Virus record (IMG/VR): IMGVR_UViG_3300024999_000080 | Span: 12,878 to 76,877 of that record | DNA length: 64,000 nt | From: a virus | Strand: one strand, 5' to 3' | Shown: piece by piece, positions 11,998-25,742 of the stretch | Layout of the letters: every line of letters starts with the position of its first letter | Position numbering within the stretch: position 1 is the first letter of the stretch | The notes under the pieces: model-generated | The model's input: only the letters and a program-made list of their open reading frames with translations | Told to the model about the DNA's origin: nothing | The model's database searches: none | Translations under genes and position numbers: made by a program

Positions 11998-12621
11998 ATG
12001 TTTATTAATAAAATTGGATATCTTCATTTAGAAAAAGGATTGAATTGTCAAGATTTTGGTTTTGAGAGTGACAAGCATAAATGTATAATGGACGGTTGTT
12101 CAGAAGGAAAACATAGCGAAGTTGGTGCTAAATTATTTGCACATATGTTTTCAAAAGGATTAGATCCAATTGAATGTTTTGAAAAGTTGTCTGGTATATT
12201 TCCTGATTACGAGGATATAAGAGACCATATGTTATTTACTGTATTATTCGTTTCCCAAACTGATGAAGAATACATAGTTGATATTTGTGGTGATGGATAC
12301 ATAATTAAGCAAAAACTTGATGATTCGATTGAGTATGAAAAAATAGGAGAAGGTAATGCTCCAGAATATTATGCTTATAATTTTGTTTCTTCAGATCGTT
12401 TGAATAAGTATAAAGATGGTGTTGAATTCAAACATCACCTACTATCTAAAAGCGAATATAAGGCCGTAGGAGTGGCATCTGATGGCTTAGATTACATTCT
12501 TAATAGTCCTTTTAAGGATGAGTTTGAAAAGCATTTAATAGGAAGAAAAGAATTTGCAATCCGAAGACTAATCAATCGAGAACATAAATATTTTAAGGAT
12601 GATATTTCAATTGTAATTTGA
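11998..12621 (+). CDS. PP2C-like protein phosphatase (TerY-P type)
   Basis: NCQD, DGCS, CGDG, ASDG and DDISIV motifs. Confidence 0.82.
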   Translation: MFINKIGYLHLEKGLNCQDFGFESDKHKCIMDGCSEGKHSEVGAKLFAHMFSKGLDPIECFEKLSGIFPDYEDIRDHMLFTVLFVSQTDEEYIVDICGDGYIIKQKLDDSIEYEKIGEGNAPEYYAYNFVSSDRLNKYKDGVEFKHHLLSKSEYKAVGVASDGLDYILNSPFKDEFEKHLIGRKEFAIRRLINREHKYFKDDISIVI

Positions 12622-14339
12622 TTGAGGTGAAAGTGATGAATATAAGTGCTAAAATTCTAAAACAAACTCCATTAGCTGAAGGTGGAGAAGGTATTATATA
12701 TGATTTAGGGGATAATGTTCTTAAGGTCTATAAAGATTCGGTTGATAAGCAAGAAAAATTAAAAAAGGTTAAATTGTTGATATCTAAATCTTTACCTTCA
12801 AATATTATCAAACCTATTGATATTGCTTATGATTCACAGAAAAAGTTTATTGGTTATATTATGCCGAAAGCAGAAGGTGAAGACGTTAAGAAATTAGGCA
12901 ATAAGAAATATGTTAAAGTAAATAATATTAAAATCCAAGACATTAGTAAATTAGCATTAAAAATAAAAGAAACTCTCACAATTTTACATAATCAAAACAT
13001 TCTTATCAGCGACTTAAATGATGGCAATATATTATTCACCAAGGATTTTGAACCATATTTTATTGATGTTGATAGTTGGTCTATTGATAATATTAATTGT
13101 ACAGTTTGTATGGAAACATTTAAAGATCCTAAATTAGTTTCCAGTAATTTCACTAAAGATACTGATTCATTTTCATTTGCTGTGTTATTATTTAAGATGC
13201 TGACAAGACTTCATCCCTTCGGAGGAACAATGAATCCAGATATGGATATTATTCAAAGGATGAGTAAGGGCATATCAGTAATCGAAAATTCAAAAGTTAT
13301 TGTTCCAAAGAATATTAATAAGTGGGAATTTATGTCTCCAAAATTACTTACGGATATGAGAAGTATTTTTGAAAAAGGAAAAAGGTTTTTAATAGATCAA
13401 AATTTGTTGGATTTTGCTTCAAATTTGAAGTATTGTGATAAACATGAAGATTATTATTATAGCAAGTACAAAACGTGTCCTATTTGTGATGTAAGTGCTG
13501 TAATAATTCAAGCTCCTATACAAGTTGTTGGGAATGGATCTATTCCTTATATTGTTCTAATTGCTTCAAATGGTGTGAAAATGATATTAAATCTTGATAC
13601 ATTTATTGATGATAATGATTTTGTAATTCATAGCAGATCAAAGAAAAAAGTAGAATTAGTTAATGGTAATAGATATTATTTTTCTAATGATGGAGATATT
13701 GCTTTCACAGTTTCAAATATGGATATTGGCGTTAGTAATCAAAAAGGAACATTTATATTTGAGAAAATTAATAAGAGTAATGTTGTCGTGAAGAATGATA
13801 TTATTTACTATATTAATTCAAGTTGTAATCTTGTGGAATTGACTGTAGGTGATATTGGCAACTCATTAAGGGTAATTACTAAAACTTCTTTTAATTCATT
13901 TTTTGAAGTGTATGATAAAGACAATTATCTAGTTTGTAATATTTATGATGGTTTTAAAATTGTCAACATTAGTGGATATAATTATCAGATTAATGACAAT
14001 GATAAAATTGTTAATTATGGTATACACTTCGACACTATAAAGAATTTATGGTTATTTATTACTGAGGATGATAAAGGTAACTTTAAGACATTGATTTTTG
14101 ATAAGAATAAAGTAGTTTACAGTAGCGATAGTATAAAGTATCAAACTGATCTAGGGAATTTATGTTTTAGTGGTGGGGTAATATTTAGCCCTAGTGATAA
14201 GGTTATTAGAGGATTTGGTTACGAGAAGAATGTTTATAAGGATTTTCCTTGTGATGTGGTTAATGATGGATCTAAGTTAATTAGAGATGGTAGCAAGTTT
14301 ATTGTGATTAATGATAAAGAAGTTTATAGGTTGGGTTAA
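12618..14339 (+). CDS. Ser/Thr protein kinase with zinc ribbon and beta-rich C-terminal region (TerY-P type)
   Basis: EGGEG glycine loop, VLKVY, ISDLNDGNIL, IDVDS, HPF; C..H...CPIC. Confidence 0.85.
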   Translation: MIEVKVMNISAKILKQTPLAEGGEGIIYDLGDNVLKVYKDSVDKQEKLKKVKLLISKSLPSNIIKPIDIAYDSQKKFIGYIMPKAEGEDVKKLGNKKYVKVNNIKIQDISKLALKIKETLTILHNQNILISDLNDGNILFTKDFEPYFIDVDSWSIDNINCTVCMETFKDPKLVSSNFTKDTDSFSFAVLLFKMLTRLHPFGGTMNPDMDIIQRMSKGISVIENSKVIVPKNINKWEFMSPKLLTDMRSIFEKGKRFLIDQNLLDFASNLKYCDKHEDYYYSKYKTCPICDVSAVIIQAPIQVVGNGSIPYIVLIASNGVKMILNLDTFIDDNDFVIHSRSKKKVELVNGNRYYFSNDGDIAFTVSNMDIGVSNQKGTFIFEKINKSNVVVKNDIIYYINSSCNLVELTVGDIGNSLRVITKTSFNSFFEVYDKDNYLVCNIYDGFKIVNISGYNYQINDNDKIVNYGIHFDTIKNLWLFITEDDKGNFKTLIFDKNKVVYSSDSIKYQTDLGNLCFSGGVIFSPSDKVIRGFGYEKNVYKDFPCDVVNDGSKLIRDGSKFIVINDKEVYRLG

Positions 14340-14358: not shown

Positions 14359-16356
14359 ATGATCACTGACATTCCATGTCCTTACTGTAAAGGTACAGAT
14401 ATAAACATTGAAGAAGTAGTTTGGGTATCTTTTAATCAAGAAAATGAAGGATTAGTTGAAATTTTAAATTATTGTCAGACTTGTAAGAGTCAATATCCAG
14501 TATTGACAGAGTTTAAATATGAAGTTATTAAGAGTGAGTATAGGGAGGTTTAGATTTTTATGGATAAGGCATTTGAAATCCATGCCCATTGGGAAGAAAA
14601 TGGAGAATATTTTATTGATACTGATTATAGGCAATTGAGTACAATAAAGAAAACCCAATATGATAAAGCAGTAAAAGATGGTTTTGTTATTATTAAAATA
14701 GATGATGGAGATGTAATATAAAAATGAATATCGTTATTAATAATTGTATTGATTGTTCTTCACATAAGGTATTGCTAGATCCAGACCCTAATGATTGGTT
14801 TTGTGACGATGATGTTAAAGTTGTATGCTCTATAGATAATAGAGAAATTACATGTGCTTGTAGACCATATAATATTAGAAAAGAATGTGATATTCCTAAA
14901 TGGTGTTGGAAATTAAAATAAAGGAGTATTTTTGGAAATTAGTAAAATTAAAATCGTTGCAGGAGTAGGCTTTCAGGGTTCGGCACATGGCATAAAACAT
15001 GTCTTTCGAGGGATATTAAGGTGATTATATATTAAGGAGATGAAAATAAATGAGTTGTTATGCTTTTACATGTCAATGTTTTTATTGTTCAAGAGTTCAA
15101 TATGGTTGTAAAAGAGATACACCTAATAAATGTTCTGAATACAATTGTGGGAATGATGCAGTTTGTTTGCAAGTTTTACCGGAAGATTATTATATTAATC
15201 AATGTAAAAAGTTTGGTAAAGTTGAAAGTGATGTTGGATCTTGTATTGATTGTAGCGTAGAAAATAAGGATTTGTTTTATGCTTGTAGAGATGTTGGATA
15301 TTTGAAAGGTAAAAGTTAAGGAGGGTTAAATGCATAAAATAAAAGGGTATTGGAGTAAATTTGTTTTAATTCAAATGATAGTGATAATACTTTTATCTAT
15401 AATTGGATTACCTAAAAGTAATTTAAGTTTGTTCTTGTGGATGGGAATTATATTATTTGATTCAATAATTACTCATCCTATATGGTACGAAGAGGAGGAA
15501 AATAAATGTATTTAGCAGATGTAATTAAAAATTGCAAAGAAGGAGAAGTATATAAAGCTACTTTTGCAATTGATGAGCATTGGTATATTGCTAAAATAGC
15601 AGGGTTTATTTGGTATTGTGATGAGAATGGAAAAGCATTTGAAGATATGTCAGCAGTACCTTTGACTTATAGTAATTTAAGGGCAGAATATGAGTTAGTT
15701 CAGAAAGGAGCGTTTATATGAAAGAAAAATTAACTGGTATATTTCACAATGAATTTAAAAAGCATTGAGTAACTAAATTTATTAGAAATGGATATGTATT
15801 AATGAAATACAAATATCCAAAGGTTAAAATTCCTTTTACTTCTCCAATGGTGCGATGGGAAAATCTAAATCATTGCGGTGGATGGAGTATGTGCGATGAG
15901 AATGGGGTAGAATTATCAACACAAATAAATCTTATTCAAGATGTTGTTAATGGATTTAAACCTATGGGATTTTGCTATTCCCTTCATAAAGAACAAAAAA
16001 ATGAATTTATGAAGATTATTATTGAGTCTGGATTGCCTTATACTACAGATGAACTAGATTGGAAAAATCCAGATTTTCCAATAAGATATGGTTTCAATAT
16101 TTGCCAGCATGGAAAAATAGGTGATTTACTTGATATTGATGCTGTCATAGAATCATATAATTTATTAGATTTATCCCATGATAAATGGATTTATAATACG
16201 ATAAGAGTTAATCTTTTGAAAATCAAGGACAATAAATTGTCAAATTATCTTACAGATTGGGATTATGGAAATCCTAAAACAGTTATTGAAGCAGTAACAG
16301 TAGGACTTTTATTAGGATATCCAATTGAATCTACATTTGCATTAACGACTTCTTAG
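14359..16356 (+). other. Small hypothetical genes, several Cys-rich
   Basis: Co-oriented ORFs with RBSs. Confidence 0.6.
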
Positions 16357-16480
16357 AGTTGGAAGAGAATTGGAGGGGTGGGGTTATAATTATAAAAATA
16401 AATTTTATAATTATGAATAGGACAAAATGAAATTGTCTATAATATAATCACAAGGAAATAAAAAGGAGTGTGATTATATT

Positions 16481-16897
16481 ATGCAAAATGTAAGTGTAAG
16501 TGTAAGTGTAAGTGTAAATAAAGTTTCACAAGAGATAAAAAGAGGAGATATTTGGTTAGCAGAATTAGAAGGAAGTAAAGGTTCAGAAATGAAAATGGTA
16601 CGCCCCGTTGTAATCATTCAAAATAATTTAGGGAATAAATATAGCCCATGTTGCACTATAATTCCATTGACTAGTAAGGTTGGGAAACGATGGATGCCCA
16701 CTCACACAACCCTACATAAGACGGTTTGCTTATCAACTTTGAGTATTGCTCTCGCAGAACAGGTTGCAACGATTTCAAAGGAACGATTGACAAAATTTAT
16801 TGGAGTGGTCGAAAAGTCAGAAATAGTTGCTATTGAAGATGCTATTATGATTCAGTTGGGAATCAAACCAAGAAATAATATTGCGTATGCAAATTAA
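16481..16897 (+). CDS. MazF/PemK-family endoribonuclease with no adjacent antitoxin
   Basis: KRGDIW...GSE...RPVVIIQN..GN..SP...PLTS...PTH...EQ resembles B. subtilis EndoA; catalytic Arg/Thr retained. Confidence 0.9.
   Translation: MQNVSVSVSVSVNKVSQEIKRGDIWLAELEGSKGSEMKMVRPVVIIQNNLGNKYSPCCTIIPLTSKVGKRWMPTHTTLHKTVCLSTLSIALAEQVATISKERLTKFIGVVEKSEIVAIEDAIMIQLGIKPRNNIAYAN
16490..16513 (+). repeat. (GTAAGT)4 in-frame microsatellite encoding VSVSVSVS
   Basis: Read directly from the sequence. Confidence 0.9.
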
Positions 16898-16943: not shown

Positions 16944-18497
16944 TTGGCAAAGGAGAATTGCCGAGTGCTGTTAACAAAGACGCTAACAATGAAATGGAGT
17001 GCAAATAATAAGGTATGGTTTGAAAGTAAGGGATATACTTTTACTAAATGGAAAGATGAATTTGAGATTAAGGTGGAAGATTTATCTGATGGTTCTGGGG
17101 CATTAGTTGATGTCCAATGTGACGGATGTGGAGAAATATTAACTAATATGAAATGGCAATCATATATAAGAAGTTCTAAGAAAGATGGTAAATATTATTG
17201 TAAAAAATGTTCTTGTAAATTATTTGATGGTGAAAATCAGAGAAAAACTAAGTTAAAAAGTAGCAAATCCTTTTACGATTGGTGCTATGAAAATTTACCA
17301 AGAGCAATAGCAAATTATATATTATCAAAATGGGATTATGCTTTAAATATCAATAAGAACGGCAATATAATAAGTCCTAAAGATGTTAGTTTTAGTTCTA
17401 CAGGTTTTGACGGTAAAGGATATTGGTTTAAATGCCTTAAATATCCTGAACATGGATCTGAACAGAAACGTATTAGTAATTTTGTTAGCGGAATGGGTTT
17501 AGGTAACGTTATTACTTGCATTCAATGTAACATTATTTCTATTACCCATCCACATTTAATAAAATATCTGGTAAATAAAGAAGATGCGAATAAATATTCT
17601 TTTGGTTCAAATGAAAAAATACCCATGAATTGTGTTAATTGTGGATATGAAAAAAAATTAAGTTTTAATAAATTAGTAAGTAGAGGTTTCCCTTGTCCAA
17701 GGTGTTCAGATGGTATAAGCTATCCTGAAAAATTTCTATTTTCATTCTTAGAACAATTAAATTTATATTTTAACTTTCAATTAACAAAAACAACTTTCAA
17801 ATGGTGTGGCAAATATAAATATGACTTTTACATAGAAATAATTAATGGAATAGTTGAGGCAGGAGGTTTGCAACACTATGACGATACTAAAGGTAGAAAT
17901 TGGGGAGCATCATTAGAAGAAATACAAGAAAATGATTTCGACAAGGAATGGATTGCTAGAATAAATAAAATTAAGAATTACATAATTTTAGATTGTAGAT
18001 ATTCTGATATGAAATGGATTAAGCAATCTATAATGAAGTCTAGGTTGCTTATATTAGGATTTAAAGAGGAAGATATCGATTGGCTAAAGTGTCATGAGGC
18101 GGGTTGTAATAGTTTGGTTAAAATTTCCTGTGATCTATGGAATAATGGAATGAAAAATACATCACAGATAGCAGATATAATAAAGGTGCATAGGGCTACT
18201 ATTGTAAACTACTTAAAACAAGGAGTTAAACTTGAATGGTGTGACTATGATCCTAAAATAGCGATGACTGGTAACTATAGTAGAAGTGTTATATGTATAA
18301 CTACTAGGGAGATATTTAATTCAATTGCTGAAGCAGGAAACGTTTATAAAACAGATTGTAGTAGTATATCAAAATGTAGTAAAAATAAAAAGAAATACTC
18401 AGGATTACATTCAGAAACGGGAGATAAATTAAAATGGATGTATTTAGTAGATTATGAGAATATGGTTAAATATCAAAATAATAATAAACCTTCATAA
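16944..18497 (+). CDS. Free-standing homing-endonuclease-like protein (zinc ribbons + PD-(D/E)xK-like domain + NUMOD1-like C-terminus)
   Basis: Multiple CxxC pairs, SYPEK, YDFYI...VEAGGLQHY, FNSIAEA. Confidence 0.7.
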   Translation: MAKENCRVLLTKTLTMKWSANNKVWFESKGYTFTKWKDEFEIKVEDLSDGSGALVDVQCDGCGEILTNMKWQSYIRSSKKDGKYYCKKCSCKLFDGENQRKTKLKSSKSFYDWCYENLPRAIANYILSKWDYALNINKNGNIISPKDVSFSSTGFDGKGYWFKCLKYPEHGSEQKRISNFVSGMGLGNVITCIQCNIISITHPHLIKYLVNKEDANKYSFGSNEKIPMNCVNCGYEKKLSFNKLVSRGFPCPRCSDGISYPEKFLFSFLEQLNLYFNFQLTKTTFKWCGKYKYDFYIEIINGIVEAGGLQHYDDTKGRNWGASLEEIQENDFDKEWIARINKIKNYIILDCRYSDMKWIKQSIMKSRLLILGFKEEDIDWLKCHEAGCNSLVKISCDLWNNGMKNTSQIADIIKVHRATIVNYLKQGVKLEWCDYDPKIAMTGNYSRSVICITTREIFNSIAEAGNVYKTDCSSISKCSKNKKKYSGLHSETGDKLKWMYLVDYENMVKYQNNNKPS

Positions 18498-18545: not shown

Positions 18546-19166
18546 ATGGTTGAAACATTAATATTCAGTATTTTGTGCCTAAAAACAAAATTATATTTAA
18601 AGCTAGGCAAATTCCAAATACATAAAGAATCATATCTAGTTAAACCAATACTAAAACAATGGAGTATTTATCCGGTAATACTTATGTCATTAATATATTG
18701 TATTTTTCAATATATGATTTTAAACCATGATTATAGTTTTATACCATATCAAAAGATATTTAAAGATGCCTTGATCATGTCATACATAATATTAGGAGTC
18801 GATATTTTATTTAGGAATAAAATATATAAACCATTTATATTTGCTTGTTATAGTTTATTAAGTGGTTGTGGACTGAACGCTATTGTAATGCATTTTAACA
18901 ATAAAAAGATGCCAATTTTCCCGACATTTACTTATTCGACTGGCTATACACAGTATGATATGATTATAAATTCTTCTAAATATGGAGATTTTCATGTTCT
19001 TGGAGATCATACAACAAAATTGATATTTTTAGCTGATGTATTCGATGTCTGTGGGTTTTCAATATGGTCAATCGGGGATATTTTGGTCAGGGTATTTGCT
19101 TTTATGATGGTATATTATTCAGTTAAAGAGGTTAATAAAATACATAAGAATAAAATTGTAAATTAA
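18546..19166 (+). CDS. DUF5317-like membrane protein
   Basis: LNAIVMHFN.KKMP, LIFLADVF and SIGDIL motifs with several hydrophobic helices. Confidence 0.7.
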   Translation: MVETLIFSILCLKTKLYLKLGKFQIHKESYLVKPILKQWSIYPVILMSLIYCIFQYMILNHDYSFIPYQKIFKDALIMSYIILGVDILFRNKIYKPFIFACYSLLSGCGLNAIVMHFNNKKMPIFPTFTYSTGYTQYDMIINSSKYGDFHVLGDHTTKLIFLADVFDVCGFSIWSIGDILVRVFAFMMVYYSVKEVNKIHKNKIVN

Positions 19167-19179
19167 TAAATAAATATAC

Positions 19180-19208
19180 TTGCATTACATTCTTGCATAT
19201 GGTATACT
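19180..19208 (+). promoter_or_regulatory. Promoter of the receptor-agrD unit
   Basis: TTGCAT-17 nt-TATACT with extended TG. Confidence 0.7.
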
Positions 19209-19224
19209 TGTTTTAGGTTAAGAA

Positions 19225-20064
19225 ATGAATAAGAAAGAGGTAATACATATGCAAGGTGTAACAAATGCTTTATTGAATACTATTTTGGTAAGCATCCCAG
19301 AGGAATCATTTATTGTAATTATGACATTGGTTTTTTTAAGAAGATTTGATATGTTGGACATCAGAATGTGGAAACACAGTTTGAAATGGATCATGGTTCC
19401 AACCTTGCCCGTAGCAATAATGATAAACGTGTTTAGATATATAGTAATAATACCAAAACCATTAATGTCTTTAGCTTCATTTATATTAATGACAATTTTA
19501 ATAATATTTATGATAATAAAAAATAGTGTTGTTTTTGATAAAAAGTTATTATTTAAGACAATAATGTTTACAATATTAAGTTTTGTTGTGGTTGGATTAA
19601 TAGAATTATTATATTATCCTATTTCACTCTCCTTGTTACATAAACAGATGTCTTATTTTAATAATAATATCCTATACAATCTTTTATTAGCAATTCCTAC
19701 AAGAGTATTACAAATATGTATTGTGGCATTTATCATAATGAGGAAAAACAATGATATTGAGATAAATTTATTCAACACAATTGTGAGAAACAAGTTTTTT
19801 ACAAAAAGTTTTATAATGATGATAACTATTATGTTATTTGTAATAATTTATATGGGGAAGTTGCTAATGTTTGATAATATATTAGTGGAATTACAAGTCA
19901 TTGATCAATTGTTCATAGTTTTAATTGTTATAGTAACACCAATAATTTTAATTACTTGGTTCCTAATGTTTGTTAATTATTTATTAACAAAGGAAAAACA
20001 AATACAGCAGACTTACGAAAATCTTGTTATGCAAGATGACGTAATGCTTGATGTAGAAGATTAA
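19225..20064 (+). CDS. Polytopic membrane protein resembling an AgrC/VirS-type sensor domain, with no histidine kinase domain
   Basis: About 7 hydrophobic segments and a ~25-aa polar tail; no H/N/G boxes; directly upstream of agrD; likely start at MQGV after the GAGGT RBS. Confidence 0.55.
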   Translation: MNKKEVIHMQGVTNALLNTILVSIPEESFIVIMTLVFLRRFDMLDIRMWKHSLKWIMVPTLPVAIMINVFRYIVIIPKPLMSLASFILMTILIIFMIIKNSVVFDKKLLFKTIMFTILSFVVVGLIELLYYPISLSLLHKQMSYFNNNILYNLLLAIPTRVLQICIVAFIIMRKNNDIEINLFNTIVRNKFFTKSFIMMITIMLFVIIYMGKLLMFDNILVELQVIDQLFIVLIVIVTPIILITWFLMFVNYLLTKEKQIQQTYENLVMQDDVMLDVED

Positions 20065-20084: not shown

Positions 20085-20201
20085 ATGAAAAAATACGCTA
20101 TCGTCGCTGGAATGGTTGCCCTGGCCGCTACAATGTTTACTAATGTTTTTGCTTCTTGGTTGGGTGCACATCAACCAAAGTCCCCTAATTGCATGAAATA
20201 A
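20085..20201 (+). CDS. agrD: AgrD-type cyclic lactone autoinducer propeptide (38 aa; not in the ORF track)
   Basis: AGGAGGTG RBS; MKKYAIVAGMVALAATMFTNVFA-SWLGA-HQPKSPNCMK has a hydrophobic leader, a 5-residue ring and the HQPxxP tail of clostridial AgrD; agrB lies 1 kb downstream. Confidence 0.88.
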   Translation: MKKYAIVAGMVALAATMFTNVFASWLGAHQPKSPNCMK

Positions 20202-20213
20202 TATTATCCTACA

Positions 20214-20243
20214 TATAGGGAGGGACTTCGGTTCTTCCCTATA
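20214..20243 (+). terminator. Hairpin after agrD with a C(UUCG)G loop
   Basis: tatagggagggac-ttcg-gttcttccctata. Confidence 0.7.
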
Positions 20244-20281: not shown

Positions 20282-20311
20282 TTGACATTTTGCATATCTT
20301 TATAGTAAGAT
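20282..20311 (+). promoter_or_regulatory. Promoter of the HTH-mazF-agrB unit
   Basis: TTGACA-18 nt-TAAGAT. Confidence 0.6.
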
Positions 20312-20354: not shown

Positions 20355-21158
20355 ATGAAGAGGAGATGTGTTATTATGTTAAACAAATTCTTTACTAAAA
20401 ACACCAATACCGAGGAAAATACCAAAAAAGATTTCAAAAAATTAGCTAACTATGTAATTCATGCCAAAGGTCATAGGACGATCAATGGATTTGCAGCAGA
20501 TATGAAAACCGACTCTGAATATCTAACTCTTGTTGTTAATGCAAGAATAAACTCTTATCCAGATATAAAATTTCTTAAAACCATCGCTGACAATTCTGAT
20601 GGTAGAGTATCTTTAAAGGATTTAACATTGGCGTGTGGGTATTCAAATTACACAAATAATGATATGGAACAGATAAAAAATATTGAAGTCAGAAGAGGAA
20701 CTTTTTGCTATGTTAGTTTGGGTGATGTCATAGATTCAGAGTATGGGGGAAATCGATTATGTTTAGTTATACAAAATGATGTAGGGAATCACTTCTCAAG
20801 CACTTCAATTATTTTACCTCTCACTAGTAGAAAACGTAGTAAGCTTCCCACCCACGTTGAAGTTGGGCCTAAAAATTGCGGATTGCCCCAAGAATCAATT
20901 ATTAGTTGTGAGCAAATTCGTTGTGTATCAAAAAGGAGACTTAGCCAAAACGGGATAGTTCAGAAGGTTTCAGAATGCCCTTCAGAAATTATGTTATTGG
21001 TTGAGGTTGCCATGCTGAAGGCACAAGGGGTTATTCATCTTAAAATGAATGAACAAGAAGCAGTTCAATATCTAATGAATATGAACAAGCAAAAAACATA
21101 TCAGTATCAAAATAATTATAATCGTAGTGCAAGTCAGCAGGTTGCCTTTGCACGATAA
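20355..21158 (+). CDS. XRE-like HTH domain fused to a MazF/PemK endoribonuclease
   Basis: N-terminal AKGHRTINGFA...YL....N....P....LK.IA......VSLKDL..ACGY; C-terminal RRG...SEYGG.R.CLVIQNDVGN.FS...PLTS...LPTHV...EQIR. Confidence 0.85.
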   Translation: MKRRCVIMLNKFFTKNTNTEENTKKDFKKLANYVIHAKGHRTINGFAADMKTDSEYLTLVVNARINSYPDIKFLKTIADNSDGRVSLKDLTLACGYSNYTNNDMEQIKNIEVRRGTFCYVSLGDVIDSEYGGNRLCLVIQNDVGNHFSSTSIILPLTSRKRSKLPTHVEVGPKNCGLPQESIISCEQIRCVSKRRLSQNGIVQKVSECPSEIMLLVEVAMLKAQGVIHLKMNEQEAVQYLMNMNKQKTYQYQNNYNRSASQQVAFAR

Positions 21159-21182: not shown

Positions 21183-21806
21183 ATGAGTTTTATTGAAAAT
21201 GTTTCAAATTATTCTGCTAGGTGGTTGGCATCAAAAGTACCTAATGATAAATATCCTACAGTAGAAGATCAAATTGAGGTTTTTACCTATGGTTTTATGG
21301 TTATATGGGGATTTATATTTAAGATCATATTGATGGTATCATTAGCATATATCTTTAATATTATAATCCCTATTATAATATTAACATTGACTTTCAGTAG
21401 TTTAAGAATTATCGCAGGAGGATACCATTTAAAGACCTATAATCGCTGTATGATTATTAGTGCTTTGCAATTCATTGTATCAGCATTAATAATCAAACAC
21501 ACATATCAATATTGGCCTATCCAAAACATCTATTCTCTGCTATTCTTTTGTGTATTAACGACACTATATATAATCTTCAGATATATTCCAAGAGACACAC
21601 CCAACAAACCCATTATAGACCCTTTACAGATTAAAAAGTTTAAACGATGGTCATTATACTACCTTATCGCATGGACAGTTGTAATGACCATCTTCCTACT
21701 GTTTAATGTACATATAATTGTAATTGCAAGTTGTTTTGGGTTATTGTTGGAGCTTTTTAGTGTGGGTAGAATAGGGCAATCGATATACTCTAAGCTAGAT
21801 TCATAA
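21183..21806 (+). CDS. agrB: Accessory gene regulator B (autoinducer-processing membrane peptidase)
   Basis: YG near the N-terminus, LRIIAGGYHLKTYNRC (catalytic His/Cys), PRDTPNKP. Confidence 0.92.
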   Translation: MSFIENVSNYSARWLASKVPNDKYPTVEDQIEVFTYGFMVIWGFIFKIILMVSLAYIFNIIIPIIILTLTFSSLRIIAGGYHLKTYNRCMIISALQFIVSALIIKHTYQYWPIQNIYSLLFFCVLTTLYIIFRYIPRDTPNKPIIDPLQIKKFKRWSLYYLIAWTVVMTIFLLFNVHIIVIASCFGLLLELFSVGRIGQSIYSKLDS

Positions 21807-21906: not shown

Positions 21907-22635
21907 TTGGAAACATATAAAGATTTAACTGGATTAGTATTTAATAATTGGACTGTTCTAGAATTATCGAACAGAACAAATAAGAAAGATGATAGATATT
22001 GGAAATGCCGTTGTAATTGCGAATATAAAACAATTAAACATGTAGCAGAAAGGGCATTGTCTTTTGGCACATCAAGAAGTTGTGGTTGTTTACTAGGAAA
22101 AATACCATCTAAAAAAATTGCAAAGGTTAAACCTGATAAAATATTAAAACCTCCAAAAGACAAAATAGTTAAACCTAAAATCGTAAAACCTTTAAAAATT
22201 CTAAAGAAAAGAATTTATAAAGTAAAAATATCTGATAGTAAAGAAATTAAAATATCATACAACAAAAGAATAATGAGCATTTATAGCGGAATGAAACAAA
22301 GATGCTATAACCCTAAAGCTAAAGGTTTTAAATATTATGGGGGCAAAGGAGTTGTTATTTGTGATGAGTGGTTAAATGATAGAAAGTTATTTTATAATTG
22401 GGCAATAAACAATGGATATTCTGATGAATTAACTATTGACAGAATAGAAAATGATGGGAATTATGAACCAGACAATTGCAGGTGGACTACTTGGGAAGAG
22501 CAAGCCAATAATAAATCTAATACTGTATATTATAGATATGAAGGAGAAATTAAATCTTCATTGGATTGGTGCAAAGAAACTTGGTTAACTTTTGAAACTT
22601 TAAAGAACATATTTGATATACATATCCTGCATTAA
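21907..22635 (+). CDS. HNH homing endonuclease
   Basis: WKCRCNC, SCGC, MKQRCYNP, YGGKG...CDEW, TIDRIENDGNYEPDNCRW. Confidence 0.85.
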   Translation: METYKDLTGLVFNNWTVLELSNRTNKKDDRYWKCRCNCEYKTIKHVAERALSFGTSRSCGCLLGKIPSKKIAKVKPDKILKPPKDKIVKPKIVKPLKILKKRIYKVKISDSKEIKISYNKRIMSIYSGMKQRCYNPKAKGFKYYGGKGVVICDEWLNDRKLFYNWAINNGYSDELTIDRIENDGNYEPDNCRWTTWEEQANNKSNTVYYRYEGEIKSSLDWCKETWLTFETLKNIFDIHILH

Positions 22636-23308: not shown

Positions 23309-24667
23309 ATGCTTAAAGAAAAATCAGTTGAATTGATCCAAGAATTAAATCCATTAATCGTTAAATATTCTAGCAATGACAAAGTAAGGAAAATAATTTT
23401 AGATGAGTTCTCTAAGAGGAATATGAGTGGTCGTTTAGCACTTTCTATCCTTAATGAGAAAAGGGCATTATCAACATTAGACATTGATGAAGGTAAAGAT
23501 TTAGTATTATTATTTGTTTTTACAAATGCAATGTATGATGCATTAAATTTTAAAACAGATGATGATTCTCCAATTTTAGGAGATATCGATGAAGTATTAA
23601 GTATTGTTCCAAGCAATTTCTTTAATGAAATAGAAATGCAGAATATGGAAAATTATAAAGAGGAGAAAAGAGTAGAGACGAAAAAGCAATATGTGTTTCA
23701 TAATATGCTTCGTGCGGCTGATGGGCATTATAAAGGTTTAGATCATGCTAAACATCTTGCAGAAATATATGCAGAAAATGAAATTATTTATAATTTTAAG
23801 AATCAACGTGATCCGCATATTGATATTTATGGAGAAAAGAGAATTCAACTTGATAAAAACAAAGTAGAACGAATAATGAATAGACTGCTTGAAGGAATTC
23901 AATTTTCAGATGATATCAAATTAAATATACTTCATGATGGTGAAGATGAATTATATTTTAATGAAAAAACTGGAGATTTAACCTATATTTCTGGAAGTAT
24001 TAATATATTTGATGGTTATCATAGACTCATAGCTAATTCTTTAGCTATCGCAAAAAATGCAGAATTAGAGTTTAACTGGGGGTTAGTAATTACTAATTTC
24101 AGTGAGAATAAAACATTAGAATTTATGACCCAAGTTAATGAGCAAAAACCCATGAAAAAAGAGCATATAAAGAACCTAGATTCTTCAAGATTGGGAAATG
24201 TTGTAGTAGATGCAATTAGAGACATTGGTACTAGTGAATTTGGTCAGAATATTAAAGAATCAGATGCAGAATTGAAGTTTTCTGGTATGACAAAAAAGTC
24301 TACTTTAGCTATTAGTATAGAAGAATGTTATAAGGAAAAACTAACCAATAGACTTCAAGCAAAGCCCATAGCAAAGCATATTGCTAACGTTATGGACTAT
24401 ATCATTGGATTGAATGTTGAAGAGTTTATAGAGCGTCCTGACGCTTCTCAGACATATATCAACCACAAGAATATGTTCTCTGGATATGTTGCTTTATCAG
24501 AAAGATTATATGATGTAAAGAATTGGGAAGACTTATTAGAAGAAATTCTTAATCAAATTGATTTCAGTGTTAAAAATCCTTTCTGGAAAGATATTGGAAT
24601 ATCAGATTCCGATATGAAAAAATCTACCAGAAATAACCTATATAAATTCTTTCAGAAATTAGTTTGA
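23309..24667 (+). CDS. DGQHR/DndB-ParB-like protein (SPbeta YopQ-like)
   Basis: YNFKNQR, IFDGYHRL, F.QVN..KP; size and position directly before an integrase-fold gene. Confidence 0.6.
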   Translation: MLKEKSVELIQELNPLIVKYSSNDKVRKIILDEFSKRNMSGRLALSILNEKRALSTLDIDEGKDLVLLFVFTNAMYDALNFKTDDDSPILGDIDEVLSIVPSNFFNEIEMQNMENYKEEKRVETKKQYVFHNMLRAADGHYKGLDHAKHLAEIYAENEIIYNFKNQRDPHIDIYGEKRIQLDKNKVERIMNRLLEGIQFSDDIKLNILHDGEDELYFNEKTGDLTYISGSINIFDGYHRLIANSLAIAKNAELEFNWGLVITNFSENKTLEFMTQVNEQKPMKKEHIKNLDSSRLGNVVVDAIRDIGTSEFGQNIKESDAELKFSGMTKKSTLAISIEECYKEKLTNRLQAKPIAKHIANVMDYIIGLNVEEFIERPDASQTYINHKNMFSGYVALSERLYDVKNWEDLLEEILNQIDFSVKNPFWKDIGISDSDMKKSTRNNLYKFFQKLV

Positions 24668-24686
24668 TTAATATATTTAATAAGGG

Positions 24687-25742
24687 GTGTTTAATATGTC
24701 CATCAATGAAGTTAACGAAGAATTGCAAGATGAAGAGGTAGTATTTGAGGTTGATTCAGAAGTTAAAAAGGAGTTTCTAGAAAATCAATTAAAATCTACT
24801 AGAAGTTTCTACACTTATGTCCTCAAAAGAGCAGATGAATTTGAAACACAGGTTGGCAAGAAAATTTATGACTTCAATATTGAAGATCGTGATGAAATGC
24901 TAACTGTTCAATTCAAGAATAAGAACAAATGGACGTTTCAATCTGCTTTATCTCCTTTAAAAACTTATGTTGACTTCTGTATATCTAAAAGTTTAGTTAG
25001 ACATAATGAGAACAGATTTATGACCATTCTTCCTGCTGATTATAAGGATTATATTAATGACCAAGCACAATGTAATTCTTATATTCCTTTATCTAAATCT
25101 AGAGAACTTCAAAAAAGGTTGAAAAATGATCAAGATAAATTGATTATAGAGTTATCTAGTTTGTCTGTCAGAGGAAGAACTGAAAAGGGGAATACTCTTG
25201 AAGAACTCGTAAATTTAAAGGTTAAAGATATTAAATGGAAGACTAAAGAATTATATCTTACTAAAAACAATGGTGAACAAAGATATATTGAAACTGATGA
25301 TTACACATTAGGTTTACTCAAACGAGTTATAAATCAAACTTTCTATGTCTCTAATAATGGGTTAAAATCTAAGAAAAATGAGGATGGTATTTATGAAGAG
25401 ACTAATAGAGGTAGGGCTATAAGTCCGACTGAATATGTATTTAGAGTTCCCGGAAAGAACAGATTAGGTAAAGTAGATTATCAATTTTTCACTAGCAGAA
25501 TTCAAAGGATGCAAGGTTGGTTAGAAGCTCCTTATTTGACTAGTTCGAATTTATACTTCTCAGCGATTTTAGACTATGCAAAAGAGAAGATGGATGAAAA
25601 AAAGGCAAAAGGAGAAAAATGTGAATTAACCAGAGAAGACTATATTCAAATTAATGAGCGATTTGAGTTTGGTGAAAATGGAGAAAAATATGTATTCAAA
25701 ACCAGAGATTTAGTTAAAATGTATTTTGGTAATGGAGAGTAA
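24687..25742 (+). CDS. Tyrosine-recombinase-fold protein, probably a catalytically inactive repressor (SPbeta YopR/MrpR-like)
   Basis: SAM-like N-terminus, VRG...EELVNLKVKDI box I; the H-x-x-R box II is replaced by SNLYFS. Confidence 0.6.
   Translation: MFNMSINEVNEELQDEEVVFEVDSEVKKEFLENQLKSTRSFYTYVLKRADEFETQVGKKIYDFNIEDRDEMLTVQFKNKNKWTFQSALSPLKTYVDFCISKSLVRHNENRFMTILPADYKDYINDQAQCNSYIPLSKSRELQKRLKNDQDKLIIELSSLSVRGRTEKGNTLEELVNLKVKDIKWKTKELYLTKNNGEQRYIETDDYTLGLLKRVINQTFYVSNNGLKSKKNEDGIYEETNRGRAISPTEYVFRVPGKNRLGKVDYQFFTSRIQRMQGWLEAPYLTSSNLYFSAILDYAKEKMDEKKAKGEKCELTREDYIQINERFEFGENGEKYVFKTRDLVKMYFGNGE

Follow-up and report, generated by a model that had tools for sequence, protein, structure and literature searches.

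What reads a cyclic-peptide signal when the gene next to its precursor encodes only a membrane protein without a kinase? This question is raised by a locus in a 64,000-nt stretch (the window; positions 12,878 to 76,877 of the virus record IMGVR_UViG_3300024999_000080), where an agrD gene is preceded by two membrane protein genes. A preliminary description, made from the sequence alone, compared the larger of them to an AgrC sensor module without its kinase and suggested that it could form a new transducer with its DUF5317-like neighbor, for example by sequestering or releasing MazF at the membrane, or else act as a peptide sink or as a dominant-negative partner of the host AgrC. Here we show that the cassette belongs to a family of large groundwater Clostridia phages, and argue that the larger protein, called X below, is most likely a new kind of peptide receptor.

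Results

Gene content of the cassette

Both genes are real, and the observation itself is confirmed. The first (18546-19166, + strand, 206 aa) matches the Pfam family DUF5317 (PF17248) with E 5.5e-19 and 69.1 bits against a cut-off of 25. It has about five transmembrane segments and a conserved extramembrane domain at residues 118-175, which is inferred to be extracytoplasmic from K/R counts; its AF2 model has pLDDT 87. Residues G107, N111, N118, M122, P123, D164, S175, G177, and D178 are invariant, in agreement with the family pattern N..N.G.MP / D / S-x-G-D, all but G107 being listed as invariant in an alignment of 26 sequences. The second ORF opens at 19225 and would encode 279 aa, but it more likely starts at the ATG at 19249, 7 nt after an AAGAGG ribosome-binding site, where 24 of 30 aligned homologues also start. 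The resulting protein X (19249-20064, + strand, 271 aa) has seven transmembrane helices in its AF2 model (pLDDT 95.5, pTM 0.90), the last running into a C-terminal helix, and the positive-inside rule gives an N-out, C-in topology. Its 25-residue cytoplasmic tail carries on average 6.4 acidic residues across the close family, and the tail and cytoplasmic loop 1 are the most conserved segments.

X is followed after 21 nt, behind AAAGGAGG, by a 38-aa AgrD precursor (20085-20201, + strand; TIGR04223, 19.9 bits against a cut-off of 19). Its predicted Ser-lactone ring, S-W-L-G-A, is encoded at 20154-20168 and followed by HQPKSP; the pattern of an invariant Ser, four hypervariable residues, and [HYN]QP.xP is shared by 40 unique homologues. 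A 13-bp hairpin with a UUCG loop (20214-20243, + strand; -19.1 kcal/mol, z -2.99, 0 of 200 shuffles fold as well) follows agrD and may be a terminator or a processing site, although it lacks a T run and the terminator scan called no canonical intrinsic terminator. Co-transcription of X and agrD is inferred from spacing only: three groundwater DNA sequencing runs from one study contain the stretch, and no RNA run is listed for it.

Upstream, the cassette begins with a stand-alone homologue of MazF/PemK endoribonucleases (16481-16897, + strand, 138 aa; PF02452, E 6e-26; phrog_1935-type MazF hit phrog_1936) with a conserved C-terminal ..N[VI]AYA(N), which is present wherever the contig reaches far enough upstream. 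It is preceded by a promoter-like site (16419-16448, + strand, 10 of 12 consensus match), a possible start of the MazF-DUF5317-X-AgrD transcription unit; this evidence is weak, since the promoter scan as a whole (62 sites against 54.7 expected) is not above shuffled background. A homing/HNH-type endonuclease gene (16944-18497, + strand; phrog_4538, phrog_9084, and phrog_559) lies between MazF and DUF5317. It is a mobile insert and not a part of the system, being absent from this junction in L002, L004, L009, L013, and other loci (loci are designated here by L numbers), where MazF lies directly before DUF5317.

Downstream, a promoter-like site TTGACA-18-TAAGAT (20282-20311, + strand, consensus match only) precedes a gene for an HTH::MazF fusion (20355-21158, + strand, 267 aa). 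It combines an XRE-like N-terminal domain (phrog_18248 regulator at residues 26-90), a PemK/MazF domain (PF02452, E 4.7e-21, residues 113-217), and a conserved C-terminal ..QVAYA(R), and is found in every annotated phage locus whose contig extends past agrD. Its N-terminal domain resembles the XRE gene next to a bacterial X locus (E 2.7e-7). Next comes the AgrB peptidase/cyclase (21183-21806, + strand, 207 aa; PF04647, E 3.4e-35) with a visible GGYH...C motif, and then an HNH endonuclease (21907-22635, + strand; phrog_374, E 2.7e-58) at the position where related phages (L003, L005, L008, L010, and others) carry a second, orphan X paralogue, X2. The order MazF-(endonuclease)-DUF5317-X-AgrD-HTH::MazF-AgrB recurs in the fifty-odd annotated loci, less where contigs are cut. 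DUF5317 is adjacent to X in 46 of 53 annotated phage loci, and AgrD directly follows X in every annotated phage locus whose contig extends past X. L140 carries a second X followed by a second HTH::MazF.

X is related to the AgrC sensor but lacks a kinase

Truncation of full kinases had been named beforehand as a condition that would refute the receptor reading, and it does not hold. The 36 close homologues of X include 32 full-length proteins of 267-279 aa and four shorter fragments, with none longer found, and an exhaustive phmmer search gave 169 cluster representatives of 47-326 aa, with full-length matches of about 240-326 aa and none kinase-sized. The family is uniform in length and has its own conserved C-terminus, and we therefore rejected X as a truncated or pseudogenized kinase. 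The phage tail has no His, and long bacterial forms have tails of about 60 residues with no conserved His; no ATPase domain was found by Pfam in X or in 91 family members. HATPase_c_5, HATPase_c, and LytTR (PF04397) domains were not found in five related virus records, two of them 100% complete, and HATPase_c_5 and LytTR are also absent from the record of the window itself.

Profile comparison (hhalign) ties the X family to the N-terminal sensor domain of a 12-sequence group of genuine clostridial AgrC-type kinases (Prob 94.5, E 8.4e-8, 170 colinear columns; reversed controls, Prob 1.3-1.4), and this kinase group sits in a LytTR-kinase-AgrB-AgrD operon. The same sensor type occurs fused to full kinases with an RHDFYNH H-box (L108 and L109). 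Moreover, X residues 7-171 are homologous to a short 5-TM protein encoded together with DUF5317 in bacterial agr operons (Prob 97.6, E 3e-12). The long and short forms represent an unnamed family without a Pfam model, encoded beside agrD and/or agrB, with the TM1 motif ..[VG][SI]IPE.. and a conserved Glu in TM4 and Pro in TM5; P17, E18, P150, and P231 are nearly invariant across 91 members.

The homology is, however, remote. Searches of Pfam, NCBIfam, and PHROGs give nothing for X, single-sequence searches see no kinase relationship, and a profile search of the X family against PDB sequences gave only chance-level hits. Fold searches with the X model against PDB (Foldseek, VIA) and BFVD, in the absence of a solved AgrC sensor structure to compare with, gave nothing above noise, the best VIA hit being a DUF507 chain (Z 7.5). 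The ESM Atlas gave only the cluster of the protein itself and a 0.88 lead to a cluster named "putative sensory transduction protein kinase", which we do not count as evidence. Megablast of the cassette and tblastn of X against 50,697 GenBank phage records gave no match, and our literature searches found no paper mentioning DUF5317 and none describing a kinase-less AgrC-like receptor.

X changes in step with the peptide ring

The 40 unique X-AgrD pairs carry 29 predicted Ser-lactone rings. Identity of X tracks the ring in a partial Mantel test given HTH::MazF, AgrB, and the AgrD flanks (r 0.47, p 0.0003), whereas AgrB (r 0.01, p 0.42) and HTH::MazF do not. The test rests on 31 related loci, many of them from one groundwater study. 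Pairs with the same ring have X proteins 72-100% identical while AgrB is 55-86% identical; pairs with different rings but at least 90% identical HTH::MazF have X proteins 41-67% identical, apart from one near-identical ring pair (SMFFS/SMFFT, X 91%). In addition, the phages L002 and L013 are 91-100% identical in flanking DNA but only 64-74% identical from about codon 60 of X through agrD, with AgrB 100% identical; their predicted rings are SWLFT and SWLWS.

Bacterial relatives of the cassette

In bacteria, X is followed at once by an AgrD in 8 of 9 loci, and XRE HTH genes flank 6 of 9. A matching orphan AgrB lies elsewhere in those genomes (all five genomes checked), and since AgrB is also present in all phage loci whose contig reaches that far, we rejected X as a replacement for AgrB. 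The bacterial long forms have no MazF nearby, carry tails different from that of the phage, and are not adjacent to DUF5317. DUF5317 in turn lies directly after, and often overlaps, an HD-GYP gene in 17 of 30 sampled Clostridia loci, without any agr genes (MASE9-HD-GYP / DUF5317 pairs); in the phage, where it belongs to the same Pfam family, it is preceded by a MazF gene instead and followed by X-AgrD. In bacterial agr operons the order is DUF5317, short 5-TM protein, AgrB, AgrD, with no kinase.

Discussion

The interpretation given in the preliminary description is partly supported by our data. Its core, an AgrC-like sensor module that stably lacks its kinase, agrees with the homology, the length distribution, the absence of kinase domains, and the co-variation with the ring. 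DUF5317 as a partner is supported only by synteny, in the phages and beside the short X homologue in bacterial agr operons, and release or sequestration of MazF at the membrane is neither demonstrated nor excluded.

We propose, with a probability of roughly 0.6, that X is the cognate receptor of the cyclic peptide made from the neighboring AgrD by the phage AgrB, that is, the seven-helix sensor module of an AgrC-type receptor existing as a stable protein without the DHp and ATPase domains. The analysis itself establishes the homology of X to AgrC sensor domains, the lack of a kinase throughout the family, the absence of histidine kinase ATPase and LytTR domains from complete related phage genomes, and the diversification of X together with the four variable ring residues of AgrD while the flanking genes, including AgrB, do not follow. 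The rest is inference from sequence alone, including expression and cyclization of the peptide: it would bind the variable TM2-TM7 part of X from outside, and the signal would leave through loop 1 and the tail (..QIQQTYENLVxQDDxMLDVED) by protein-protein contact rather than phosphotransfer. The most likely target would be HTH::MazF, whose bacterial counterpart would be the XRE regulator beside bacterial X-AgrD pairs, with the stand-alone MazF and DUF5317 as alternatives; this output step is pure inference. In this view DUF5317 is a conserved accessory membrane protein of the kinase-less agr class; in bacteria it lies directly after HD-GYP c-di-GMP enzymes and before a 5-TM homologue of X, AgrB, and AgrD, and in the phage the MazF gene occupies the slot of the HD-GYP gene. 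The cassette would let phages of one pherotype count each other, with at least 29 predicted pherotypes, and adjust an RNase or regulator output.

Other roles of X seem unlikely but cannot be dismissed. X could take part in peptide production, as a ring-specific chaperone, exporter, or flippase for the AgrB-made intermediate, or, with DUF5317 as the peptidase, in removal of the N-terminal leader on the outer face of the membrane. Indeed, X sits inside the biosynthetic gene set, in the order AgrB-X-AgrD in L016, L020, and L027; its short homologue and DUF5317 lie in agrBD operons which we tentatively read as C. perfringens-like, where the two upstream ORFs are co-transcribed with agrBD (PMC2706048); DUF5317 has an invariant N/H/D/S-G-D cluster in its inferred extracytoplasmic domain; no leader peptidase of clostridial AgrD is known; and co-variation with the ring would also be expected of a ring-specific export or maturation factor. 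However, X is homologous to the ligand-sensing domain of AgrC and not to any transporter or peptidase, has no invariant Ser, Cys, or His, and is best conserved in its cytoplasmic parts; AgrB, the enzyme that must accept the ring, does not co-vary with it; and orphan X2 paralogues have no AgrD. As for DUF5317, its frequent occurrence with HD-GYP and without agr genes also argues against this role. It has two invariant Asp residues (D164, and D178 in S-I-G-D), but no protease appeared among the fold matches of the DUF5317 model (Foldseek E at least 1.6, best VIA Z 6.2), and the idea that it is a presenilin/prepilin-type GxGD intramembrane protease received no support.

A decoy role, as a sink or immunity protein keeping the producing cell deaf to the signal, or as a dominant-negative partner blocking a host AgrC-type kinase, appears the least likely. 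It is suggested by the sensor domain without catalytic output, by the agr genes of phages such as phiCDHM1, possibly used to manipulate the host (PMC3901668), and by the many AgrC-type kinases of Clostridia hosts. On the other hand, X co-varies with the AgrD of the phage itself and not with a host signal, the same architecture is chromosomal in bacteria that use it with their own AgrD and have no kinase at the locus, and the nearly invariant tail and loop 1 are hard to explain for a passive sink; the orphan X2 paralogues also fit less well. AgrC dimerizes mainly through the DHp domain, which X lacks. The sequestration idea, a special case of our main reading in which the acidic tail is a membrane-tethered MazE-like inhibitor holding one or both MazF homologues inactive until the peptide binds, is likewise doubtful. 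The cassette does have two MazF homologues, both retaining by eye the Arg and Thr of the MazF active site, with no MazE domain (PF04014) in the record; the tail is acidic and conserved; and MazF, DUF5317, and X appear to form one transcription unit by spacing. But the stand-alone MazF is only 35-45% identical among most phages while the tail is almost invariant, bacterial X homologues and X2 paralogues have other tails, and no sequence similarity to MazE was found. A predicted complex of two MazF copies with X residues 236-271 scored 0.00 without controls, which is no evidence either way.

Compared with AgrC of the staphylococcal and clostridial agrBDCA systems (HPK10 kinases), X shares a homologous polytopic sensor domain, proximity to agrD and agrB, and diversification with the ring, as in agr specificity groups. 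It differs in the lack of the DHp His box, of the ATPase domain, and of an AgrA/LytTR partner among the complete related phage genomes examined, and in the acidic tail that replaces the kinase; AgrB is not part of the hypervariable block, and the ring nucleophile is Ser in all 40 unique AgrDs. The bacterial operons found here match the four-gene layout CPE1563-CPE1562-agrB-agrD of C. perfringens (Vidal et al. 2009, PMC2706048), where the two upstream ORFs are published only as hypothetical proteins and, as a point against our reading, VirS is reported to be the receptor. The equation of CPE1563 with DUF5317 and of CPE1562 with the short form of X rests on operon layout. The phage cassette contains all four gene families, but in a rearranged order, with an X that has two more helices and a cytoplasmic tail, and with MazF genes in place of the GGDEF/HD-GYP enzyme. 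The agr3 locus of the Clostridioides difficile phage phiCDHM1 (Hargreaves et al. 2014, PMC3901668) also combines phage-borne agrB and agrD with a receptor candidate and no response regulator, but its AgrC has 453 aa and a HATPase_C kinase domain. Arbitrium (AimP/AimR/AimX) is similar in concept, a secreted phage peptide with many specificity variants, each paired with its own receptor, but the molecules are unrelated: arbitrium uses linear imported hexapeptides and a cytoplasmic TPR receptor, whereas here the peptide is predicted to be AgrB-cyclized and the sensor is a membrane protein.

A bolder possibility, which we regard as tentative at best, is that a lineage of 120-230 kb groundwater Clostridia phages runs its own pherotype-diversified cyclic-lactone communication system, in which the kinase-less 7-TM receptor passes the signal by direct contact to a MazF ribonuclease or HTH::MazF regulator. 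This would be a non-phosphorelay output from an agr sensor and a membrane-receptor counterpart of arbitrium, and the same principle, a kinase-less sensor plus DUF5317, would explain how the many agrBD-only Clostridia sense their peptide and couple it to c-di-GMP enzymes.

Agr peptide signaling is understood as a histidine-kinase phosphorelay, yet many Clostridia, including those with C. perfringens- and C. difficile agr1-type loci, carry agrBD without agrCA, and the two extra ORFs of the C. perfringens operon have stayed hypothetical since 2009. If our reading of that operon holds, one of these ORF families, together with its longer phage and bacterial form X, is a homologue of the AgrC sensor. 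Along with the co-diversification of X and the peptide ring, this gives a concrete receptor candidate, for which the near-isogenic L002 and L013 types are ready-made material, and implies a kinase-independent way of passing on the signal. In phages, it would be a second, mechanistically different example of phage-encoded peptide communication with specificity groups, here linked to RNase toxins.

Genomic context of the two genes

The window is part of a 76.9-kb IMG/VR virus record, estimated to be 44% complete; it has about 29% G+C and nearly all genes on the + strand, with replication genes (NAD ligase, DnaB-like helicase) lying further along. Both of the adjacent open reading frames singled out in the preliminary description are real. 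The ORF 18546-19166 encodes a DUF5317 protein (PF17248, E 5.5e-19). The 279-aa ORF 19225-20064 most likely starts at the ATG at 19249, behind AAGAGG, giving a protein of 271 aa, hereafter referred to as X. No Pfam, NCBIfam or PHROG match to X was found. Its AF2 model is very confident (pLDDT 95.5, pTM 0.90) and shows seven membrane helices, the last of which runs into a C-terminal helix, and K/R counts give an N-out, C-in orientation with a 25-residue acidic cytoplasmic tail.

A 38-aa AgrD starts 21 nt after X (its TIGR04223 match is just above the cut-off) and is followed by a strong hairpin. The neighboring genes are a stand-alone MazF (16481-16897), a homing endonuclease (16944-18497), an HTH::MazF fusion (20355-21158), AgrB (21183-21806), and an HNH endonuclease (21907-22635). 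Both MazF homologues end in a conserved short C-terminal motif, ..N[VI]AYA(N) in one and ..QVAYA(R) in the other, which is reminiscent of the ssrA-type ..LAA degradation tags; they might be unstable toxins or share a docking site. No MazE domain is present in the record. Upstream of the cassette lies a run of small Cys-rich ORFs (14359-15319; 64, 65, and 89 aa) with CxxC pairs, possibly zinc-ribbon proteins, and before them a 573-aa ORF (12618-14339), whose N-terminal roughly 200 residues look like a protein-kinase catalytic core (..HNQNILISDLNDGNILF..), although its only PHROG hit is weak (phrog_37888, E 2.8e-6). Directly after the cassette (23309-25742) come a 452-aa protein of unknown function (phrog_5732) and a 351-aa integrase-like protein (phrog_5830), which are syntenic in most related loci and for which a repressor block was proposed in other parts of the preliminary description.

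Absence of a kinase in the X family

X is not a broken kinase. Among its 36 close homologues, the 32 full-length proteins are 267-279 aa long and the other four are shorter fragments, and a search restricted to longer proteins found none. An exhaustive phmmer search of 1.8 billion representatives gave 169 hits of 47-326 aa, with full-length matches of about 240-326 aa; thus truncated kinases, an outcome that had been named beforehand as counting against the proposal, were not what these searches returned. The close family has its own nearly invariant C-terminus, ..EKQIQQTYENLVxQDDxMLDVED, and the longer bacterial members carry about 60 cytoplasmic residues without a conserved His. The HATPase_c_5 and LytTR domains are absent from the record containing the window, and no HATPase_c_5, HATPase_c, or LytTR domain was found in five related virus records, two of which are 100% complete (166.7 kb with terminal repeats, and 230.3 kb).

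Similarity to the AgrC sensor domain

A hidden Markov model of 91 family members hit one AgrC-type kinase colinearly over its membrane domain. Profile-profile comparison with 12 kinases of that group gave a probability of 94.5% and an E-value of 8.4e-8 over 170 columns (TM1-TM6), whereas reversed-sequence controls gave 1.3-1.4%. Members of this kinase group lie in LytTR regulator-kinase-AgrB-AgrD operons, and so are genuine AgrC proteins. No solved structure was found to resemble the X model; however, this says little, because no AgrC sensor structure turned up to compare with.

The phage cassette

In 11 viral loci, one MAG contig, and 41 metagenome loci, the gene order is MazF-(endonuclease)-DUF5317-X-AgrD-HTH::MazF-AgrB, and it is kept wherever the contig extends far enough, although DUF5317 is missing in one of these loci, L011. 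Homing and HNH endonuclease genes invade different intergenic junctions in different phages, namely MazF|DUF5317, DUF5317|X (in the related locus L129), and the position after AgrB, making the cassette a hot spot for mobile endonucleases.

In many related phages AgrB is followed by an orphan paralogue, X2 (loci L003:8746-9597, L005:5989-6810, L008:8764-9597, L010:5998-6861, L140:3501-4334, and others), at the position where the window has an HNH endonuclease instead. X2 forms a separate subfamily, 42-52% identical to any X1 (the X encoded before AgrD); it has no AgrD behind it and carries other, Tyr/acid-rich tails, and in L140 it is followed by a second HTH::MazF gene. The only sequencing runs that contain the stretch are groundwater metagenomes from one study, and nothing similar was found in GenBank phages. 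Many different X/AgrD variants, among the loci L124-L161, come from contigs with the same sample prefix (Ga0209728), so several predicted pherotypes seem to co-exist in one groundwater community.

Co-variation of X with the AgrD ring

All 40 unique AgrDs share the leader, an invariant Ser, four hypervariable hydrophobic or aromatic residues, and then [HYN]QP.xP; there are 29 different predicted rings. Across 31 complete loci, X identity follows ring identity after controlling for HTH::MazF, AgrB, and the AgrD flanks (partial Mantel r 0.47, p 0.0003), whereas AgrB (r 0.01) and HTH::MazF (r 0.04) do not follow it. Same-ring pairs have X proteins 72-100% identical even when AgrB is only 55% identical. 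In contrast, different-ring pairs with at least 90% identical HTH::MazF have X proteins only 41-67% identical, apart from one near-identical ring pair (SMFFS/SMFFT, X 91%). In addition, the two related phage loci L002 and L013 are 91-100% identical in DNA over MazF, DUF5317, HTH::MazF, and AgrB, but fall to 64-74% from about codon 60 of X to the end of agrD. This is the pattern of agr specificity groups, with X in the place of the AgrC sensor. Within X, the N-terminus/TM1, cytoplasmic loop 1, and the tail are the most conserved segments, while TM2-TM7 vary.

Bacterial relatives

The long form of X (290-326 aa) occurs in Clostridia genomes, among them Anaerobacterium chartisolvens. An AgrD follows it directly in 8 of 9 loci; AgrB sits in front in two of these, as well as in a further bacterial locus (L027), and an XRE-type HTH gene lies beside it in six. 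One of those HTH proteins resembles the N-terminal domain of the phage HTH::MazF. Genomes without an adjacent AgrB carry a matching orphan AgrB elsewhere.

DUF5317 and the short sensor homologue

DUF5317 was found in 30 of 150 sampled Clostridia genomes. In 17 of 30 loci (L062-L091), an HD-GYP gene (encoding a MASE9-HD-GYP or GGDEF-HD-GYP phosphodiesterase) lies directly upstream, often overlapping by about 11 nt, and in three loci (L075, L089, and L091) DUF5317 is fused to an unannotated C-terminal part of about 400 aa (ORFs of 558-594 aa). The five loci whose DUF5317 is closest to the phage protein read [c-di-GMP enzyme]-DUF5317-short 5-TM protein-AgrB-AgrD, four of the five carrying a GGDEF and/or HD-GYP gene upstream.

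The short protein carries the same ..IPE.. motif as X. It is homologous to X residues 7-171 (probability 97.6%, E 3e-12; reversed control 0.4%) and to the AgrC sensor (probability 91.2%, E 1e-6), and the same sensor also occurs fused to full kinases (bacterial loci L108/L109). In one Clostridia genome (L099/L121), three tandem paralogues of the short IPE-motif sensor, 149 aa each, lie in a row. Judged by layout alone, the DUF5317-short 5-TM protein-AgrB-AgrD arrangement matches the published C. perfringens operon CPE1563-CPE1562-agrB-agrD, whose first two ORFs are only described as hypothetical (PMC2706048).

The DUF5317 model (pLDDT 87) has about five TM helices and a 58-residue domain, inferred to be extracytoplasmic, that holds the invariant N, H, D, and S-x-G-D residues. 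Fold searches with this model gave no match, and no paper mentioning the family was found.

Discussion

Our analysis establishes that X is a stable, kinase-less member of the AgrC sensor lineage, that it is paired with AgrD in phages and bacteria, and that it co-diversifies with the predicted peptide ring. The remaining steps are inferred: X would bind the mature peptide from outside and signal through its conserved cytoplasmic loop 1 and tail by protein contact. The most plausible target is HTH::MazF (XRE regulators in bacteria), because it is the best-conserved neighbor and the only class of neighbor shared with the bacterial loci. In the phage, MazF sits where HD-GYP sits in bacteria, directly before DUF5317, which hints, by positional analogy only, that DUF5317 couples a membrane event to the enzyme encoded upstream.

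The interpretation offered in the preliminary description is thus supported in part: the core reading, an AgrC-like sensor module without its kinase, is supported, whereas the proposed roles as a peptide sink or dominant-negative partner, or in holding MazF at the membrane, are merely compatible with the data. A role of X in peptide export or maturation, a decoy role, and a MazE-like role of the tail all remain possible, and the one complex prediction that was made spoke neither for nor against a reading.

The closest known systems are AgrC/AgrA, the C. perfringens agr operon, and the agr3 locus of phage phiCDHM1, the AgrC of which does carry a kinase domain. Of the defining features of AgrC, X has the sensor homology and the co-variation with the peptide, but lacks the H-box, the ATPase domain, and the LytTR partner. 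Thus X would work like an AgrC sensor but is not an AgrC kinase, and the interest of this family lies in how a sensor without a kinase would pass on its signal.
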